This document shows positions 42,784 to 58,371 of a stretch of DNA of 59,720 nt, one piece after another. The translations under genes were made by a program, and so were the position numbers. The stretch's first letter is position 1. Each line of letters begins with the position of its first letter. The DNA is from a virus (Duplodnaviria > Caudoviricetes), in IMG/VR virus record IMGVR_UViG_3300020234_000033, positions 1-59,720 of that record. One strand, given 5' to 3'. Under the pieces are notes generated by a model. It saw only the letters and a list, made by a program, of their open reading frames with translations, ran no database searches and was not told the DNA's origin.

Positions 42784-43976
42784 TACTCTTCTCCAGCGCT
42801 TTGCGCTTCGTCATCATCATCTAACTCAGAAATATCCGCGGTGATCGCAGAGCGTGGATCCGTAGGTGGAGCCAGCTTCGGTGATCCCGGGGGTTTACGA
42901 ACATGGTCCGTCATAATTTTATGATCCTTACCCAGCAGCTTCTCAGCCTGGGTGGGACTGATCATGGTTTGCTTGAAGATATCCTTGACCTTCAACTTGG
43001 TTTTACGCAGTGCAGCTTCCGCCTTAACAGCGTCGCGCCACGCACGGTTCGAGCGTCCCGCTACCAGTTTCCAACTGGGGGTGCCCACAGCACGGCCTGC
43101 CTGAATTTCTGACAGCACGCGCCCCTCGATGTCATTACACCAGCTGCGCATCAGACTAATGACGTCCATGCAATTCGCCAGATCGTCGTTGGTCATCAGG
43201 TCCGGATCCTTGATCGACTCCATGTCGTCCAGTTCATCCAGCATCTGCGCCATCAGCCACTCTTTACGGTGGCCACAGGTGTCCCGAGCCTTACACCACC
43301 GGCAATGCTCACCGGGTTGAAACGGTGCGTTCGGCTTCAGTGCAATTTCAGCGGTAGGCTGAACCTTGTCCCGGGCCCATAGCAGGATCTCTTTCAACGA
43401 GACCGTGGCCTCATCGATGTGGTCGAGCCGGGGCTGACATATATTGAACTTGAAGGTTTCAATATCATAGAGGTGACCGAAGTCCTGAAATACACCAAGG
43501 CCATACCCCCACATCTGCGGGTTGTTCTTGATGTAGACCTTCACGCCCTGCCCGAATTTTAAATCGGTCAGGTTGCACAGGCCATCATGGATCCGGATAT
43601 CATCCGCAGTGCCGTAGCCACCCGGTACCCAGGCATCGTAGCTGACGCGCTCTTCGATGAGTACGTCACCCTCGAACTCCGCCACGTAATCCAGAAAGAA
43701 CTGGACGTGACGTGCGAACTCAGCATCGACCGTGAAGCGCTTGCAATGGCTCACCAGATCTATGTAGGTCGTGGCAGGTACATTGTTGAGGCGGCACAGC
43801 TCCGACACGTGGTGGGCAAACGTGCCCTCGTCAGCGTACTCCGTGGGTGCATCCGGCAACCCCCGGCACAGCAGCACCGAGCCCGGGCACTCCAGCCAGC
43901 GCTCCATCGCCGACGGGCCCAGCTCGGAATGGTCGTCCGGCTTCTTCAGCAGATCCTCGTAGGTTACGAGTTCCAT
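42783..43976 (-). CDS. DUF2800 / Cas4-like PD-(D/E)xK exonuclease
   Basis: HS.LGPS...RWLECPGS, EGT.AH, GTADD, DLKFG.G, NPQ..Y, QPR and HCRWC...C (Fe-S) motifs. Confidence 0.88.
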   Translation of the reverse strand: MELVTYEDLLKKPDDHSELGPSAMERWLECPGSVLLCRGLPDAPTEYADEGTFAHHVSELCRLNNVPATTYIDLVSHCKRFTVDAEFARHVQFFLDYVAEFEGDVLIEERVSYDAWVPGGYGTADDIRIHDGLCNLTDLKFGQGVKVYIKNNPQMWGYGLGVFQDFGHLYDIETFKFNICQPRLDHIDEATVSLKEILLWARDKVQPTAEIALKPNAPFQPGEHCRWCKARDTCGHRKEWLMAQMLDELDDMESIKDPDLMTNDDLANCMDVISLMRSWCNDIEGRVLSEIQAGRAVGTPSWKLVAGRSNRAWRDAVKAEAALRKTKLKVKDIFKQTMISPTQAEKLLGKDHKIMTDHVRKPPGSPKLAPPTDPRSAITADISELDDDDEAQSAGEE

Positions 43977-43977
43977 G

Positions 43978-44313
43978 TCACTCTGCCAGCTTGACGTCAC
44001 ACTCGTCGATCACCTGCTTGTACTTCGATGCGGGCAGGTTACCGATGGTGCTGGCGCCATGGCTCTTCAGGATGGACTTGGCCTGGGCCGGAGTGGTGGC
44101 CTTCTGCAGCTCCTGCAGTTTGGCGCGTACCATCTCCTTGGTGTACTCCGGATCCCCGACGTCTTCAGTACCGACTCGTTTCTCATTTGACTTCTTGGTC
44201 GAGGATTTTTTCGGCGGGGCTTTTTCTTCGGCCGGGGCGGCGACAGTGCCTCCCCCTGCTGCGATGGTTTCAAGAGCTGCAGCTATGCGCTCAAGCGTTG
44301 CTTCAATTGTCAT
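43978..44313 (-). CDS. Hypothetical replication-module protein
   Basis: AGGAG SD, MTIEATLERIA..LE start, small helical C-terminal domain; a common neighbour of DUF2800 genes. Confidence 0.7.
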   Translation of the reverse strand: MTIEATLERIAAALETIAAGGGTVAAPAEEKAPPKKSSTKKSNEKRVGTEDVGDPEYTKEMVRAKLQELQKATTPAQAKSILKSHGASTIGNLPASKYKQVIDECDVKLAE

Positions 44314-44326
44314 GCGTTTTGTTCTC

Positions 44327-44632
44327 CTAAAGTTTACAAGTACAGTGCGTCGGCGTCTGAGGAAACCACACGTATGGAGTTCCCCTGCAGACGGCCAGCA
44401 CACCACTATCGTCATCCTCGACCACTTCACAGTGGCCAAAGATCTCACGAAGCGTTCTAACGGTGCAGTAGCTGCACTCGTTATAAGATTTAAGTATGAA
44501 GCTGAAGCCCGGGAGGGCAATCGCTTCACAGCCTTTAACGAAATTAGGATCGAGATTCTTTTGCCAGCGTACTGGGTGACGAACTAGATCGTTGCCCCCA
44601 TGACGCAAGAATTCTGTGTTATCCATGCTCAT
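44327..44632 (-). CDS. Hypothetical protein
   Basis: GGAG SD; part of a tightly packed operon. Confidence 0.55.
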   Translation of the reverse strand: MSMDNTEFLRHGGNDLVRHPVRWQKNLDPNFVKGCEAIALPGFSFILKSYNECSYCTVRTLREIFGHCEVVEDDDSGVLAVCRGTPYVWFPQTPTHCTCKL

Positions 44633-44822
44633 TGATATTCACTCCCTGCTCGTTGTTCATTGACTTCATTTTTTCGTTGGCCTCTTTCTCAGTGTCAAAT
44701 GGACCAGCGGTAAAGTCGAGTCGGTTATCCTCGATCTGTTCCCAGACACACCAGCCGACCCGGTCGTGGTCGTAGGCCACCCGGTATAAATGGAACCCGG
44801 TAACCTCGTCGTCTTCATTCAT
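44619..44822 (-). CDS. Hypothetical protein
   Basis: GGAG SD; GPFDTEKEA motif. Confidence 0.55.
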   Translation of the reverse strand: MNEDDEVTGFHLYRVAYDHDRVGWCVWEQIEDNRLDFTAGPFDTEKEANEKMKSMNNEQGVNINEHG

Positions 44823-45318
44823 GACACACTCCAATTGCTGCCTGCATGATCTCATCGAAGTCAAAGCCACCTCGGTTCAACGCCTGCCGGATGGTGATGT
44901 CTTCTATCTCTTTCGTCGACAGCCAGTGCGGCTCGACTCGTTCGTCATTGTAGGTAAAAATATATTCTGTAATCTTGACGCGCTCCTCGATGAGCGCTCT
45001 GCCTAATTCAGTGATGCGGTAGAGCCCGGAGTGTTTTGTTTTTGAATCAGGATCAGGCGACTTGGCTTCAGTGACTCCGAATTTTTGCATGTGTCCCCAC
45101 TGATTAGTCCGTAAAGTGTACCGGCTTCCTTTGGCCTGGGTTTCAACCCATGAATCCTTGGATTCGTGATACAGCCAGATCAAGGACTTTGCCATCGGCA
45201 CGCCAAATCTCCGGGCATAGACCTTCCCTATTCGATCACAGACAGGACAGATAACTCCACCGGGTACGATCCAAGTGTCATCCTGCCACTGTGTTCTGCG
45301 GTCGGCAAGCTCACCCAT
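44815..45318 (-). CDS. Hypothetical Zn-finger/winged-helix protein
   Basis: CPVC and GLYRITELGR motifs. Confidence 0.65.
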   Translation of the reverse strand: MGELADRRTQWQDDTWIVPGGVICPVCDRIGKVYARRFGVPMAKSLIWLYHESKDSWVETQAKGSRYTLRTNQWGHMQKFGVTEAKSPDPDSKTKHSGLYRITELGRALIEERVKITEYIFTYNDERVEPHWLSTKEIEDITIRQALNRGGFDFDEIMQAAIGVCHE

Positions 45319-45441
45319 TTATTTGATCAGCTCCACGGTAAAGTACGACAGCATGTACGGTAACCCGACCAGCCAAAAATAAATTTTCAGCAAATCGTCG
45401 ATCCAGTGCAGTTCATATATTAGTCTGTCCCACTTGCTCAT
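45319..45441 (-). CDS. Small membrane peptide (40 aa), not in the ORF track
   Basis: MSKWDRLIYELHWIDDLLKIYFWLVGLPYMLSYFTVELIK exactly fills the gap, with ATGA coupling. Confidence 0.5.
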   Translation of the reverse strand: MSKWDRLIYELHWIDDLLKIYFWLVGLPYMLSYFTVELIK

Positions 45442-45683
45442 TTGACTGCCGTGCACCCATCGGTGCCGACCTCGGGAGCGTTGCCACCATCCCAGTCTTT
45501 CAGGAACAGCTGCGCGTTCTGCATGGTGTCAAAACAAATGCGGGCGCTGTACCCAGTCTCATCGAGACCGACGCACACGCCGCAGGTGTATATGTACCGG
45601 TGAACCCCACAGATCAGCCCATTGATCTCACGTAGGTCGGTGTAGCCGTGACCCTCAATCATGGTCCGGGTTTCTTCATTCAT
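45438..45683 (-). CDS. Hypothetical protein
   Basis: AAGGAG SD before (M)MNEETR. Confidence 0.6.
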   Translation of the reverse strand: MNEETRTMIEGHGYTDLREINGLICGVHRYIYTCGVCVGLDETGYSARICFDTMQNAQLFLKDWDGGNAPEVGTDGCTAVK

Positions 45684-45801
45684 CATCGCTCTCCTTACAT
45701 TCATCGCAGGTGAAAGGATATCCCTGCGGCTCATCGGGAGGATTGCCACAGCAAATCTGGCAGATCTCACCCGCTACAATTGCCTCAGCTATATCACCCA
45801 C
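45676..45801 (-). CDS. Small Zn-finger protein (41 aa), not in the ORF track
   Basis: MGDIAEAIVAGEICQICCGNPPDEPQGYPFTCDECKESDDE; GGAGG SD before the GTG. Confidence 0.6.
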   Translation of the reverse strand: MGDIAEAIVAGEICQICCGNPPDEPQGYPFTCDECKESDDE

Positions 45802-45913
45802 GGTGTGCCTCCCACCAGTCTTCGATCTCATCAAGGGCCCAGCGCAGATTGCCACCGGTCAGGACAGCGTAGAGCGCGAAGAAGTAAGCTACTAAAAACA
45901 GGGCTTCAATCAT
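45794..45913 (-). CDS. Small membrane peptide (39 aa), not in the ORF track
   Basis: MIEALFLVAYFFALYAVLTGGNLRWALDEIEDWWEAHRG; GGAGG SD. Confidence 0.5.
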   Translation of the reverse strand: MIEALFLVAYFFALYAVLTGGNLRWALDEIEDWWEAHRG

Positions 45914-46169
45914 GACCCCTCCGCAGGAACGCAGGGATCACGAGATGGTCATCCTGATCCCAGTCTATATTCAAGTCCAAGGTCACCTCGTCCAAGTCAC
46001 GGTCGACGTTGGCACCCTTTTTTAATTCATCCTGCACGTCCCGGCCCGGTGAGAATGCTCTGTCACGGGATGCATTGGGATCCACGGGTGTGATAGTGTC
46101 GTCGTCGTCGTCATCAACGCGCCGACGCCTATCATTAACGCGTCGATTTTGATCAGGGGTATAAATCAT
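45906..46169 (-). CDS. Acidic, probably disordered protein ending in an FtsZ-C-terminus-like peptide
   Basis: GGAG SD and ATGA coupling; C-terminus DDHLVIPAFLRRGHD. Confidence 0.65.
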   Translation of the reverse strand: MIYTPDQNRRVNDRRRRVDDDDDDTITPVDPNASRDRAFSPGRDVQDELKKGANVDRDLDEVTLDLNIDWDQDDHLVIPAFLRRGHD

Positions 46170-46675
46170 ACTTGGCACTCCGTATAGAACTGTGAATTGT
46201 GGTTGTTGAGATCGTACTGCGGAACCTGGGCCCACCATAGCAGGTAGTGCACAAACTCGTGGCGCAGGTGGTTGCTCTGGTTCTGCTGCAGATCGTAGTC
46301 GGTTATCCGGATATAGCGCGTGTCATAATTGATGTACGCGGTGACCTGTAACGAGCCATCGATCAGCGGCATGTTTGACTGGGCCACATACTCGATGACC
46401 AGCTTCGGATCCGGCGGGGCGAGGCCGACGCAGGCCTGCACATCAAGCCAGACCTGATCGATAATATAGAGCCACGGCCCGGGTAACTTGCCCGGGTCGT
46501 AGTTGACGGTGAAGCGCTCGTTGCGCTCCTGATAGTTCCCAGTCCACCCAGGCCAGCCGTAGAAGGCGCCATCGCCATTGCTGGGACCGGTGTTGCTTGT
46601 GGTACTGCAGCCCGTGAGCAGCAGCGCGAGGACCACCAGCAGGATGGTGAGGATATCGAGTTTTAACATACTCAT
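46166..46675 (-). CDS. Lipoprotein with an HExxH metallopeptidase motif
   Basis: Lipobox LLTG-C after a hydrophobic signal; LRHEFVH. Confidence 0.65.
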   Translation of the reverse strand: MSMLKLDILTILLVVLALLLTGCSTTSNTGPSNGDGAFYGWPGWTGNYQERNERFTVNYDPGKLPGPWLYIIDQVWLDVQACVGLAPPDPKLVIEYVAQSNMPLIDGSLQVTAYINYDTRYIRITDYDLQQNQSNHLRHEFVHYLLWWAQVPQYDLNNHNSQFYTECQV

Positions 46676-46857
46676 GGCAGATCCCTCTTTTTGGCACTGT
46701 ACAAGTAGGTGACCGATGAGGCTATTGACTGAGCCAACGCCTCCGCGGTCTTCGGCTCATTGCCTTGCCTCGGGTGTTGGTTGTGCTCCAGATCAACGTG
46801 AAGCTCGTACAACAGCTCCCCCTCGCCATCCTTGATGACTACGATGATGTCGTTCAT
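46672..46857 (-). CDS. Hypothetical protein
   Basis: ATGA couplings at both ends. Confidence 0.5.
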   Translation of the reverse strand: MNDIIVVIKDGEGELLYELHVDLEHNQHPRQGNEPKTAEALAQSIASSVTYLYSAKKRDLP

Positions 46858-46961
46858 GACATCCACGTCCCGGTGACGTAGGTAAACAGGATCCAGATCA
46901 CGAGCGGGAACAGCCAGTCGCTGATATGATCATACGTGTTGAAGAGCAGAAACTTTCTCAT
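46854..46961 (-). CDS. Small membrane peptide (35 aa), not in the ORF track
   Basis: MRKFLLFNTYDHISDWLFPLVIWILFTYVTGTWMS fills the gap, with ATGA couplings. Confidence 0.45.
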   Translation of the reverse strand: MRKFLLFNTYDHISDWLFPLVIWILFTYVTGTWMS

Positions 46962-47365
46962 GATGGCTCTCCCGGCAGGTGGACGATGAGACCTTTGTTC
47001 TTCCAGTAGTTGTTCGACACGAAGTCATGCAGATCCTTGTAGAAGACAGGGTTGCCACTGATCCAACTGGGCCTGCCGTTCAAGGTGCCCTTAAAGGCGT
47101 CGATGCTGAACTCGAAGCTCGGCTCTTCTTGCATCCGGGCACCGGTGCCATTCTCTCTGGATGGCTTCCAGACGCTGCTGAGGTTGAAGCCTCGCATAGG
47201 GGAGGTGTCGATGGTGAAGTGGCCGAACTTGTCGTCCTTCATGAAATCGAAGTATTGGTCGGCGTGTCGGATGATGGTGAAACCATGGCCCAGCAAAAAT
47301 TCCTGGGTGGCGTCGACGGATTCCTTCACGGTCTCGTGCTGGGTTAAATCGATAAAGAGTTTCAT
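46958..47365 (-). CDS. Hypothetical protein
   Basis: 135 aa, ATGA coupling; KPSRENGTG motif. Confidence 0.65.
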   Translation of the reverse strand: MKLFIDLTQHETVKESVDATQEFLLGHGFTIIRHADQYFDFMKDDKFGHFTIDTSPMRGFNLSSVWKPSRENGTGARMQEEPSFEFSIDAFKGTLNGRPSWISGNPVFYKDLHDFVSNNYWKNKGLIVHLPGEPS

Positions 47366-47547
47366 GTCAGCATCCCCGTGTCCTTCTTGGGAGCAACATC
47401 AACCTTGGGCTCTTTAGGCTCAGTCACGTCCCCACATATTGAGTGGGTGTGGTACATACAATAGAGGTCTTGATAATCCTCAGGCGTGGGTAGCACGATA
47501 TTGGGGTCGCCCATCAGGGCATGCAGTAGTAGCAGTACAGTATTCAT
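47362..47547 (-). CDS. Hypothetical small protein
   Basis: First ORF after the structured intergenic region. Confidence 0.45.
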   Translation of the reverse strand: MNTVLLLLHALMGDPNIVLPTPEDYQDLYCMYHTHSICGDVTEPKEPKVDVAPKKDTGMLT

Positions 47548-47574
47548 AGCGTTTTCTCATAGCGTTAGTTGGAA

Positions 47575-47850
47575 AAAAGAAGGTTTAGGGTGTCAGCCGG
47601 GTCATTTGGCCGACTCGACACCCACCACCCACACCACAGACACGCGCCCATGATTGGTCTTCACTGGTATTTATGAACGCCCCAGTAGCAATCAACTTCC
47701 GCCATGGCGATCTTGCAAGACAAAATAAAACAGGCGGTGCCCTTAGACTGACACCGCCAAACATCAGGCCCATAGCGTCACACACGAACAGGGCCAGAAG
47801 AAGAAAAAGGTGAGCGCGTACCCGGGGAACTGGACCGGATACACGCTCGG
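47575..47850 (-). ncRNA. Candidate structured ncRNA with five consecutive hairpins
   Basis: Stems at 47812-47848, 47767-47795, 47733-47758, 47651-47694 and 47588-47623. G-U pairs in the first and last stems work only on the minus strand; several linkers are U-rich. Confidence 0.5.
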
Positions 47851-47873
47851 GTTGTGCCGCGATACGCAAGGAA

Positions 47874-48707
47874 CTACGCGGCGACTTTGAGGCCAACCAG
47901 ATTACTGAGAAACTGATCAGTGATCTGAGTACGGTCAGCGATAAGGTTGTGGTTGATGTTCTGACCAACAGGCTTCAGGGCCTGGGTCACACAGTTGCGT
48001 ATCAACCATGCAGATTTGCCCCATTCGAGGTGCTCTTCGAAGGTAGGCTTGTCCCACTCATTGATGGCTTTGGACAGCTGTGCGCCACTGAGGCCACCTT
48101 GACGGTAGATCTCGACCAGTGCAGCATCACCACCACGGGGATTCGGAAATTGGTAAGCCTTGTAGGCCTCGAACTGATCCGCGCGTTGCTCAGCCAGCAT
48201 CGGGATTAAGCCCACGGCTTTCGAGATCAGCCCGGGCAGGCGACGATGGATGTTGGTGGTCTGCTTGGTAGCGATGCTACCGATGGTGCCGCTGAAAGCG
48301 AGGTTGCTGCAGACGAAGATCTTGTCGCCCAGTACCAGCTCACGCCTCAGTGACTGATCGTGTGCACCGCGCAGTCCGACCAGCAGCTCGTAGCCTGCAT
48401 CATTCTGACGCCATTCAGATACCTGCATGTCTTCGCCGGTGTTCTCGACGGTGACAACAGTGCCGGTGGCCTCGTCGCGGGGAGCGATGGCCAAGGCACC
48501 AAAAAATTTCTGGTGGTCCTTGGTGACTTCGAGGTCACGTTCCAGCACATTAAAGCCGACGCGATCCAGAGCGGACTCGACATCTTCGACATAGGTGTGG
48601 AAAGGATACGGGCGATGGAAACGGCCTCGGCCTTGTGGGGTTTCGATCTGGCCTAATTGAGCCAGGGTCAGGTGCGGATTGCCTTCATGTGAATAAAGTA
48701 ATGACAT
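47874..48707 (-). CDS. DUF932 family protein
   Basis: P.PF..YVE.V...L, FFG.L, GLR..HD.S...L..G..IFVCSNLAFSG; AAGGAG SD. Confidence 0.75.
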   Translation of the reverse strand: MSLLYSHEGNPHLTLAQLGQIETPQGRGRFHRPYPFHTYVEDVESALDRVGFNVLERDLEVTKDHQKFFGALAIAPRDEATGTVVTVENTGEDMQVSEWRQNDAGYELLVGLRGAHDQSLRRELVLGDKIFVCSNLAFSGTIGSIATKQTTNIHRRLPGLISKAVGLIPMLAEQRADQFEAYKAYQFPNPRGGDAALVEIYRQGGLSGAQLSKAINEWDKPTFEEHLEWGKSAWLIRNCVTQALKPVGQNINHNLIADRTQITDQFLSNLVGLKVAA

Positions 48708-48822
48708 TTTCAATCTCCTTGCGTTGCGTTAGTTGCGTTAAAAAATTACTACACCTAAAGTATAGCTCATCTCCATATAAAGTGGTACCATATTTTGCCA
48801 ATAAATCAGAGGATCCACACCG

Positions 48823-49149
48823 ATGCGACCCCCACTTTTTTGGCCTATAACTCCTCTGACTGAAAGGCAGAGTAGAAAATTTGATCACGCATTCAATAAC
48901 GCGATTGATCAAGCCGGTAGTATCGGCAAACTGGCACCCAGGCTATCAGCTCACAGCGGCGAATACATCAGCCATCAGGCTATGCGTAACTGGCTGGTTG
49001 ACCGCAAGATCCCATTTCAATGGGCCCTCGTGATGGAGGACTACACTGAGGGTACTTCTAATTTCTTCGATCTGATACCGTGGCTGCTACCGCGAACGGT
49101 GCAGTGGCACGACAGACTCATGACCGAGCAACAAAGGGAGTCGGCTTGA
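48823..49149 (+). CDS. Cro/YdaS-like HTH regulator
   Basis: AIDQAGSIGKLA..L...ISHQAMRNW...IP..WA..ME pattern; divergent from the leftward operon. Confidence 0.7.
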   Translation: MRPPLFWPITPLTERQSRKFDHAFNNAIDQAGSIGKLAPRLSAHSGEYISHQAMRNWLVDRKIPFQWALVMEDYTEGTSNFFDLIPWLLPRTVQWHDRLMTEQQRESA

Positions 49150-56384: not shown

Positions 56385-57365
56385 CTATGCGCAGGCCCTC
56401 CGATCTGCTGCGTTGCCGCCGTTGGCTTTCAATTCGTCGGCACGTCGCAGGCACCAGTCCCGGTCAGCGATGAATGTGCCTGTCTCGCGATCCACGATGC
56501 CGTTCTCCCGGGCCCAGTGGTTCCAAGCAAAGGATCTACCCAGTCCGACAGTGATGCCCGTGGTGGGCCACTGAGTGGCTGGCTTGGCTACGAACTCTTC
56601 CCAGTCCTTGCCGTAGGTGCAGTCGTCTGAACCCCAGCGGCTGTGCTTGCCCACCATCGCGGCGTGCTCCATGGCGAGGGATTTCATGAACAGATCCGGG
56701 TGCGCCCCGGCCAGCCAAAACAGTTCCCATTTCTGGGAGGCTGGGCAGAAGAAGCAGGCCGACTTGATTGGCACGGGCAGGCCCTCTTCGACGATGCGCT
56801 TGATGCAGTCTTCGCGCTCCCAGTTCAGATCCTGAAGTGGGTACGAGTACAGGAAGTCGTCGTCTTCGCGCTTCACCTTTTTGGCTCTGCGGATGTCCGC
56901 TTTGCCGCTGTCGTAGCCGATCAGTTTCACCAGCTTGCGACCCTGGCCCAGAGCATTGGTCCACAGTGGATGTGGGTCGCAGGCATTGGGTCCAGACTTG
57001 CAACCCTTGACCACGTAATCCTGCGGTACCTGTTTCCATTTGATCGAGCAGGACTTCATGCCGAAGGCCAGACTGGGCAGTGTCTCATTGTGTGAGCAGT
57101 TGCCACCGAGCGAGCCGTAAGGCGTGGTGTCGAGCGTGATCTTTTTACACCATGTGACCGTGGGGAAACCTTGGCGCAGTAGCCAGTCATCCATCAGGCG
57201 GACGGTGTCGTAGGTCTCTGGCTTTTCAGCGCCGGTGTCAGCGAACGTGATCAGGTCCGGGCGGATCCCGGCATCACGCAGCGCGATCAGCATCGCAGTG
57301 CTATCGACACCGCCGCCGTAGCAGACTACAACTCCGGCGTTCTCAGGTAGTTGGATCTGGCTCAT
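56385..57365 (-). CDS. PAPS-reductase-like / adenine nucleotide alpha-hydrolase (PP-loop) protein
   Basis: YGGGVDS PP-loop, FADTGAE.PETY, CSIKWK, YPL...W.REDC, and KSACFFCP Fe-S motif. Confidence 0.85.
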   Translation of the reverse strand: MSQIQLPENAGVVVCYGGGVDSTAMLIALRDAGIRPDLITFADTGAEKPETYDTVRLMDDWLLRQGFPTVTWCKKITLDTTPYGSLGGNCSHNETLPSLAFGMKSCSIKWKQVPQDYVVKGCKSGPNACDPHPLWTNALGQGRKLVKLIGYDSGKADIRRAKKVKREDDDFLYSYPLQDLNWEREDCIKRIVEEGLPVPIKSACFFCPASQKWELFWLAGAHPDLFMKSLAMEHAAMVGKHSRWGSDDCTYGKDWEEFVAKPATQWPTTGITVGLGRSFAWNHWARENGIVDRETGTFIADRDWCLRRADELKANGGNAADRRACA

Positions 57366-57504: not shown

Positions 57505-57568
57505 GATCCTGTCTCATCAGTGCCGGTAGGATCGAATCCGGCAGACCCGGGCAAGCCCGGGTTTCGAC
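57505..57568 (-). ncRNA. Type II hammerhead ribozyme with pseudoknot (HHR4)
   Basis: GUC GAAA C CCGGG-CUUG-CCCGG GUC/ UGCCGG-AUUCGAUCCUA-CCGGCA CUGAUGA GAC AGGAUC; predicted cut 57544|57543. The first G is shared with the upstream UAG stop. Confidence 0.92.
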
Positions 57569-58371
57569 TAGGCGATGCGCTCGGCCAGGGTCTTGCCGTT
57601 GAACATCGTGGTGCGGACCTCGATCTCCAGATCGATGTAGCGCTTGAGCAGGTCCGGGTTGGCCCGGGCAGCGTGCCTGAGGTCACCAGTGCTGCCGAAG
57701 ATGCAGAACATGCATGACAGGCGGTCGTTGCCACCAGCGTACGCTGAGTGAGGCGTCTGGCCAGCGGCAGCGATGGTGTTCCAGACGTCATCGATTGACC
57801 AGTGCGCGATGGGCCACCAGTCGTAGGCGATCCGCGACTTGATGGTGTTCTTCTTGTTGCGGTTGAGCGTGCCACGCTGGTCGATCTTGGACTGGCGTGC
57901 CGGTGACTCATCACCCCGGATGCCGACGCAGTTGACCACGATCTTGGCGTGGACGTTTGCAGCGTGCTGGCGGATGACTTTCCAGATGGGCCCAGTCTTC
58001 AGATCGCTGGTGCAAAAGCGTGCGGCTGAAGATGGGAAGGCCGGTGCGTCCGGGCGGTTGGTCGCGTCGAGTGTGGCACGGCGCTGGCGTATCGCACTGA
58101 AGAGATCCTTGGGGGATCCATCAGCGTGAATGGCACGTGCGATCATCAGCTTGCGTCCCGGGCCGATTGTGTCGTGGATGTGTTCTTTCACTCCCGGCCA
58201 TTCGATGTCACCCAGATCAGCGTGGACCACATGCAGTTGATCGAAGGGCACGCTGCGTGCCAGTACTGTGTACATGGCCTGCGAGTCCTTGCCGCCAGAG
58301 TGGCCCACGTAGAAGTGAGCACCCTTGGCGATCAGTTGCGCGATGTCGCGGTAGTTGGCTAATGGATTCAT
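57568..58371 (-). CDS. PAPS reductase family (CysH/DndC-like) protein
   Basis: HSGGKDS PP-loop, HADLG.IEW, RFCTSDLK..PI, GIRGDES.AR, PI..W...DVW and RLSCMFC motifs. Confidence 0.88.
   Translation of the reverse strand: MNPLANYRDIAQLIAKGAHFYVGHSGGKDSQAMYTVLARSVPFDQLHVVHADLGDIEWPGVKEHIHDTIGPGRKLMIARAIHADGSPKDLFSAIRQRRATLDATNRPDAPAFPSSAARFCTSDLKTGPIWKVIRQHAANVHAKIVVNCVGIRGDESPARQSKIDQRGTLNRNKKNTIKSRIAYDWWPIAHWSIDDVWNTIAAAGQTPHSAYAGGNDRLSCMFCIFGSTGDLRHAARANPDLLKRYIDLEIEVRTTMFNGKTLAERIA

Follow-up and report, generated by a model that had tools for sequence, protein, structure and literature searches.

Gene organization of the locus

The window analysed here (the whole stretch of DNA, 59,720 bases) is a whole virus record of IMG/VR, IMGVR_UViG_3300020234_000033, which is estimated to be 94% complete and has about 55% G+C. 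A near-identity search with positions 43000-49000 found no match among 50,697 cultured-phage records, and the DNA polymerase of the virus is at most 34.6% identical to any polymerase in those records. Structural genes (terminase, major head protein) lie on the plus strand, whereas a long minus-strand block runs from about 48.7 kb down to 38.5 kb, beginning with many small genes and ending with a replication module that consists of a DUF2800 exonuclease, a Gp2.5-like single-strand-binding protein, a family A DNA polymerase and an SNF2-type helicase. A terminator-like hairpin at 47758-47733 precedes the block.

Among the small genes, an ORF at 45906-46169 (minus strand; ATG 46169-46167, stop TGA 45908-45906) encodes a protein of 87 aa, which we call P0001, ending in NIDWDQDDHLVIPAFLRRGHD. 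Its start codon is supported by a GGAG ribosome-binding site 8 nt upstream (46178-46181, minus), by an ATGA overlap with the stop codon of the upstream gene, and by the same MIY start in both of its homologues (see below). The upstream gene (46166-46675, minus) encodes a 169-aa predicted lipoprotein with a lipobox (LLTGC) and an HEFVH (HExxH) motif, and has no Pfam family. The downstream gene (45794-45913, minus) encodes a 39-aa peptide with one hydrophobic span, predicted to be a single-span membrane peptide, and its ATG lies inside the HD-stop codons of P0001, an 8-nt overlap. Its likely Shine-Dalgarno site, GGAGG (45918-45922, minus), lies inside the Arg-Arg-Gly codons at the end of P0001, and therefore adds a nucleotide-level constraint on the last codons of that gene. 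The next gene in the block (45676-45801, minus) encodes a 41-aa Cys-rich small protein (CxxCC...CxxC). P0001 thus belongs to a translationally coupled block of small early genes upstream of the replication module, and phages typically keep host-takeover genes in such places.

P0001 is acidic (21 D, or 24% Asp, and 2 E against 14 K+R; pI 4.49) and hydrophilic (GRAVY -1.24). No Pfam family (E <= 0.01) or PHROG family was found for it, and a search of PDB sequences returned nothing relevant. AlphaFold2 gives no confident fold, with a mean pLDDT of 58, a pTM of 0.16 and no residue at or above 90, so that the protein is predicted to be largely unstructured. The best-predicted block is residues 71-80 (mean pLDDT 74), and a short helix covers residues 80-85. 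Residues 1-73 (45951-46169, minus), predicted with low confidence, form a linker or body with a basic patch (RRVNDRRRR), an Asp run and a conserved SRDRAFSPGRDVQD stretch, whereas residues 74-87 (45909-45950, minus; DHLVIPAFLRRGHD) form the tail, made of a core HLVIPAFLR and a four-residue variable end.

Similarity to the C-terminal peptide of FtsZ

E. coli K-12 FtsZ, translated from NC_000913.3, ends in KEPDYLDIPAFLRKQAD. BLASTP aligns residues 74-87 of P0001, which itself ends in WDQDDHLVIPAFLRRGHD, to the conserved C-terminal peptide of FtsZ (residues 370-383, DYLDIPAFLRKQAD) without gaps and through to the C-terminus of both proteins, with 9/14 identical and 11/14 positive positions. The residues equivalent to I374, F377, L378 and R379 are kept, as are the P and A of the core, and four residues follow L-R in both proteins (RGHD in P0001, KQAD in E. 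coli FtsZ). The acidic residue at the D373 position is lacking, being replaced by Val (Val77) in P0001 and in both homologues, and Arg replaces K380. As in FtsZ, the peptide follows a linker that is predicted to be disordered and is poorly conserved. P0001 is not, however, a member of the FtsZ/tubulin GTPase family, since it is only 87 aa long and has no GTPase domain, and there is no FtsZ_C match anywhere in the record.

Using the window's own amino-acid composition, 9 or more of 14 end-anchored identities have a probability of 7e-9 per C-terminus, or about 3e-6 over the 421 stop-to-stop segments of at least 60 aa, and the next best C-terminus scores 4/14. A relaxed form of the motif occurs four times in the six frames of the window, and only this one is terminal. 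Over a scan of about 250,000 windows, such a probability alone would still allow roughly one chance case (our extrapolation), and it is conservation and the recurrence of the motif in other phages that carry the argument. An ESM Atlas feature search places P0001 beside short clusters automatically named "Cell division protein FtsZ" (score 0.95, 184 of 256 features), but residues 1-69 without the tail still score 0.94, and as the method was not calibrated for parts of proteins we regard this as a lead only.

The first-pass annotation had described an 87-aa acidic, low-complexity protein whose last 15 residues, encoded at 45909-45953, imitate the tail of FtsZ after a disordered linker, and this observation is confirmed, the disorder being a prediction.

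Homologues and conservation of the tail

Only two homologues were found in 5.8 billion clustered proteins (P0002 and P0003, of 83 and 88 aa, 77-80% identical). A search for related loci found none in viral contigs and a single one in metagenome contigs, a syntenic contig (L001) on which one of the two homologues lies and which carries the lipoprotein, the tail protein and the membrane peptide (there a 40-aa ORF) in the same order, with an extra 302-aa gene inserted before the Cys-rich gene. A profile search of 1.84 billion representatives returned only the query itself and P0004, an unrelated repeat protein that matches the body and not the tail, and tblastn of P0001 against cultured phages gave only two insignificant hits (E = 8). 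Scans for DHLVIPAFLRR (0 loci) and LVIPAFLRR (6 loci, none in a credible ORF) found no further copies of this exact tail.

Conservation of the motif in homologues had been proposed in advance as a check, and it holds in the available sequences: in all three, the last 18 residues are identical apart from one Phe/Tyr exchange, while the body has three in-frame indels. Compared codon by codon with L001, the 18 tail codons comprise 16 identical, 2 synonymous and 0 non-synonymous, whereas the 64 aligned body codons comprise 37 identical, 15 synonymous and 12 non-synonymous. This fits a constrained tail on a freer linker. Nevertheless, three closely related sequences give this conservation little depth, and the last 15 codons, which are identical at the DNA level between the window and L001, also carry the ribosome-binding site and start codon of the next gene, which explains part of their invariance.

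Recurrence of the motif in other phage proteins

We next scanned IMG/VR (2.9 million contigs) with back-translated patterns of the motif. DIPAFLRR gave 65 loci, of which 62 were exact in-frame peptides, 53 in ORFs of at least 100 aa and 37 within 20 aa of the stop. The corresponding numbers were 17, 16, 13 and 2 for DIPAFLRK, 21, 20, 14 and 7 for IPAFLRRQ, and 30, 23, 18 and 10 for EIPAFLRR. In contrast, a reversed control peptide of the same codon degeneracy, RRLFAPID, gave 11 loci, 9 exact peptides, 3 in ORFs of at least 100 aa and none within 20 aa of the stop. After merging there were 99 distinct carrier ORFs of at least 50 aa, which, with the motif masked, fell into 39 BLASTP clusters (E 1e-5), 19 of them with the motif within 20 residues of the stop, five within 10 residues of the start and 15 only internally. 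ORF starts were simply taken as the first ATG, GTG or TTG, so that lengths are upper bounds, a few short ORFs are probably spurious, and one cluster of 22 members dominates the raw counts. Moreover, not every occurrence is a docking motif, since in one N-terminal cluster (TLIPAFLRRQRNQ...) the heptapeptide is probably part of a folded helix of what looks like an XRE-type HTH. The same tail nevertheless recurs at the ends of many unrelated phage proteins, whereas the reversed peptide does not, which argues for a functional docking motif, and the tail therefore behaves as a portable one.

Pfam scans of 20 carriers found a domain above cut-off in six: MT-A70 in three (one also with ParB_N), GapR DNA-binding, HTH_23 and DUF5131. 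We considered that the carriers might be true FtsZ genes, but none of the 20 has a tubulin or FtsZ domain, and this possibility was rejected. Several carriers are small proteins ending just as FtsZ does, such as one (L088) that ends in LDIPAFLRKQAD and others ending in RRQSK, RRQGG, RRQAE and RRQLA. In general the terminal xIPAFLR[RK] motif follows a variable, often Pro/Ala/acid-rich linker; the bodies are unrelated to P0001, and most carriers have a folded domain, whereas P0001 is essentially linker plus tail. A second small-protein family of about 110 aa (L055/L117/L015) repeats the plan seen in P0001, with a conserved N-terminal part, a variable linker and an invariant L[DG]IPAFLRRQ tail. 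One N-terminal carrier family continues into an AT-hook-like RGRPRK. Among carriers the residue before Ile is D, E, G, L, P or V (D, E, G, L or P in the other phage carriers), so the Val of P0001 is within the observed range. Searches of two carrier families (L055 and another, L024) by tblastn against cultured phages found no match. The MT-A70 homologue of a cultured Bradyrhizobium phage lacks the motif and has QMSLF at the equivalent linker position, and the motif is therefore gained and lost within a family.

Possible roles of the FtsZ-like tail

The FtsZ tail is read by six documented partners, FtsA, ZipA, MinC, SlmA, ZapD and ClpX, all of them division or ClpX related. The free 14-mer tail peptide binds ZipA (Kd about 20 uM), FtsA (about 50 uM) and SlmA (81 uM) and competes with full-length FtsZ for SlmA in vitro, with I374 and L378 being critical (PMC4117426), and fragments 354-383 of FtsZ are growth-inhibitory when expressed in E. 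coli (PMC11831152). In E. coli, substitutions at two of the positions where P0001 differs, D373E and K380M, reduce MinC sensitivity while FtsZ remains functional with ZipA and FtsA and still replaces the wild type (PMC4117426; PMC3618327). The record encodes no FtsZ, FtsA or ZipA (ZipA_C), so that any reader of the tail must belong to the host.

Our preferred, though tentative, reading is that P0001 is an early-expressed, intrinsically disordered protein whose one sharply constrained element copies the C-terminal peptide of FtsZ, and that this tail inserts into the pocket of host proteins that normally read the FtsZ tail, the membrane anchors FtsA, and ZipA where present, being the first candidates. 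P0001 would thereby compete with FtsZ filaments for these anchors, Z-rings would be weakened or detached, and division would be delayed or blocked during infection. Given the differences at D373 and K380, the mimic may be biased towards the anchors rather than MinC. What our analysis shows is the sequence match, its register and conservation, the predicted disorder, the gene context and the recurrence of the motif in other phage proteins, whereas binding, the identity of the partner and any effect on division are inferred. The first-pass annotation, which proposed a decoy that titrates the FtsZ membrane anchors or a protein that positions phage functions at the divisome, is thus supported only in part: the mimicry is well supported at the sequence level, its target and effect are not demonstrated. 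A complex prediction of E. coli FtsA (1-390) with residues 45-87 of our alignment (A1), made without controls, scored 0.19 against a mark of 0.32 and counts neither for nor against binding. Pure titration is also quantitatively demanding, since the peptides bind weakly and cells hold thousands of anchors, and a monovalent decoy, which unlike FtsZ forms no polymer and has no avidity, would need very high copy number, extra contacts or oligomerisation. The annotation further took the motif as a hint of a proteobacterial host; it remains no more than a hint, as no tRNA was found in the record and the best DNA polymerase hits are only 34% identical and spread over unrelated hosts.

One may also consider alternative explanations, each of which we regard as less likely. 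The tail may be a docking tag rather than a competitor, placing P0001, and whatever its body or neighbouring gene products bind, on FtsA/ZipA at the membrane or divisome, any effect on division being secondary. This would parallel the way in which the same tail appears to be appended to many larger phage proteins. Among the other carriers scanned, those with a recognisable domain are mostly DNA methyltransferases, GapR-like or HTH proteins, for which a division block is not an obvious purpose, and this fits a docking tag at least as well as a decoy; for such DNA enzymes a docking tag or another hub is more natural than a decoy. The motif is portable, occurring at disordered C-termini, at N-termini and in linkers of unrelated proteins with domains of their own; weak affinities suit reversible localisation better than stoichiometric titration; and P0001 has further conserved stretches in its body and is translationally coupled to a predicted lipoprotein and a predicted membrane peptide. 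On the other hand, it has no recognisable cargo domain. It is also conceivable, although unlikely, that the motif docks onto a different host hub, for instance a replication or nucleoid factor, with which P0001 would interfere rather than with the division machinery, its identity with the FtsZ tail reflecting shared use of that hub or convergence. All six carriers with a Pfam domain are DNA-transaction or DNA-associated proteins, one N-terminal family has the AT-hook-like continuation, and the QMSLF found in place of the motif in the Bradyrhizobium phage resembles the beta-clamp-binding pentapeptide. However, no such hub is known to read this peptide, and P0001 matches FtsZ beyond the heptapeptide, in an acidic residue and Leu upstream, in the distance to the C-terminus and in a terminal Asp.

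A role in ClpX recognition appears less likely still. The C-terminal 18 residues of FtsZ, which the tail of P0001 resembles, are listed as a ClpX degron (PMC8138137, Table 1), and the tail could make P0001 and other carriers short-lived ClpXP substrates, as a timing device, or make P0001 a competitive substrate or decoy that protects phage proteins or stabilises FtsZ; rapid turnover would make sense for phage regulators and methyltransferases. Yet the occurrence of the motif at N-termini and in internal linkers fits a docking site better than a terminal degron, and strict conservation of the I-P-A-F-L core is what the FtsA/ZipA/SlmA pockets require. Finally, the resemblance might have no function, being due to chance or to a decaying remnant of a captured 3' end of a host ftsZ gene. 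The family is tiny, about one chance match of this quality is expected in a very large scan, and the similarity of residues 1-69 to FtsZ-named fragments in the Atlas search would fit a captured ftsZ end. While this cannot be totally excluded, it is the least likely of the alternatives, since the indels are in frame, the body shows more synonymous (15) than non-synonymous (12) changes and the tail no non-synonymous ones, the gene has a good ribosome-binding site and coupled neighbours, and the motif is strongly enriched at the termini of many phage proteins relative to the control. Capture from ftsZ would in any case be an origin, not evidence against function.

Relation to known systems and implications

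In the proposed mode of action P0001 would work like an isolated FtsZ C-terminal peptide, as do the expressed fragments 354-383 and the synthetic 14-mer, but these are laboratory constructs and not natural genes, and P0001 has a conserved 73-residue body of its own. Phage and prophage division inhibitors such as T7 Gp0.4, lambda Kil and DicB are likewise small early proteins aimed at the host division machinery, Gp0.4 being an FtsZ-binding phage protein (PMC4944311; PMC13423816). P0001 shows no sequence relation to the described families (Kil, Gp0.4, DicB, SulA-like, MciZ) in the Pfam and PHROG libraries, in which such inhibitors have models, or in the profile search. Gp0.4, Kil, DicB and the like are known to bind FtsZ itself or redirect MinC, and none is known to copy the FtsZ tail. 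Our literature searches found no phage or prophage protein described as doing so, although they covered open-access papers and bioRxiv only, so that a report in a subscription journal cannot be excluded. Phage interference with host division is thus already known, and what is new here is that it would be achieved by short-linear-motif mimicry.

Phages are known to stop host division, but the inhibitors described so far act through their own folds, and a natural protein that simply copies the FtsZ tail would be a new and very economical mechanism. It would also be a ready-made probe, and a lead peptide, for the FtsZ-anchor interface, which is already pursued as an antibiotic target. A bolder possibility, less likely than not on present evidence, is that the FtsZ tail is a widely used, portable "plug" in phages, carried at a disordered end by dozens of unrelated proteins (DNA methyltransferases, GapR-like and HTH proteins, DUF5131 proteins and several tiny proteins) and connecting them to the host proteins that read the FtsZ tail. 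P0001 would then be the minimal form, linker plus plug, acting as a natural competitive inhibitor of Z-ring anchoring. This would be short-linear-motif mimicry of a bacterial cytoskeletal hub by viruses of bacteria, a strategy well known for eukaryotic viruses but one of which we found no description for FtsZ. The tail variant might also serve as a host-clade marker for uncultured phages, provided that it tracks the host's own FtsZ tail. The presence of the same heptapeptide in 39 unrelated clusters of phage ORFs suggests that phages use the FtsZ-tail readers as a general docking hub, and if so, a long-standing question becomes directly testable, namely what else, besides FtsZ, is brought to FtsA/ZipA-type proteins, and why.

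Occurrence of the FtsZ-tail-like motif in other phage proteins

When IMG/VR was examined, an FtsZ-tail-like heptapeptide (xIPAFLR[RK]) was observed in 99 phage ORFs belonging to 39 unrelated clusters (IMG/VR loci L008-L089 and L103-L146, for example L024:2129-2896, L016:4209-5588, L036:5238-6005 and L106:761-2485). The motif is found mostly at disordered C-termini, and its carriers include MT-A70 and ParB-MT-A70 methyltransferases as well as GapR-like, HTH and DUF5131 proteins. In contrast, a reversed control peptide shows no such pattern. Among the carriers there is a family of phage proteins of roughly 110 aa (L055:7228-7557, L117:2232-2558 and L015:1968-2294), in which a conserved helical N-terminal part is followed by a variable linker and an invariant L[DG]IPAFLRRQ tail, and for which we observed neither a Pfam family nor a match in cultured phages. 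In another IMG/VR locus, a phage ORF of roughly 67 aa (L088:7368-7568, minus strand) ends in LDIPAFLRKQAD, which is identical to the last 12 residues of E. coli FtsZ; this ORF sits among small prophage-type genes, next to a cytosine methyltransferase.

Not every occurrence need be a docking motif, however, and a warning of this is an XRE-type HTH family (the 114-119-aa ORFs of loci L104, L107, L108 and L115) that begins ...TLIPAFLRRQRNQRRLTLE, where the heptapeptide is probably part of a folded helix. The same motif also occurs at the extreme N-terminus, in L126, L132 and L138 (150-aa ORFs) and in L121 and L122 (e.g. MEYDTLEIPAFLRRHKKRGRPRK, followed by an AT-hook-like stretch), and is therefore not restricted to C-termini. 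The MT-A70 homologue of Bradyrhizobium phage ppBdUSDA122-1 (OP596612.1; L090:1495-3474), which is annotated as a "hypothetical protein", lacks the FtsZ-like motif, and at the equivalent linker position it has QMSLF, a sequence that resembles a beta-clamp-binding pentapeptide.

Genomic context of the tail-mimic gene

The phage represented by the window (1-59720) is very distant from cultured phages. Its portal-sized and tail-sized proteins (765, 915 and 808 aa) have no PHROG family, no tRNA was found in it, and no host could be assigned. Two adjacent PAPS-reductase-like genes are present on the minus strand at 56385-57365 and 57568-58371 (phrog_424; PF01507 for the second), and these may belong to a DNA-modification module.

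Closer to the tail-mimic gene, the related metagenome contig (L001) differs from the window in having an extra 302-aa gene (L001:1427-2335), inserted between the gene for a small membrane peptide and a Cys-rich gene, which the window lacks. Two neighbours of the tail-mimic gene are, in contrast, conserved in L001. The gene at 46166-46675 (minus strand), which is translationally coupled to the tail-mimic gene, encodes a 169-aa predicted lipoprotein (lipobox LLTGC) that carries an HEFVH (HExxH) metallopeptidase-like motif and has no Pfam family. The other, at 45794-45913 (minus strand), overlaps the end of the tail-mimic gene by 8 nt and encodes a 39-aa peptide with a single hydrophobic span. 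Since small membrane peptides are a known type of division inhibitor, this peptide and the tail mimic may act together.
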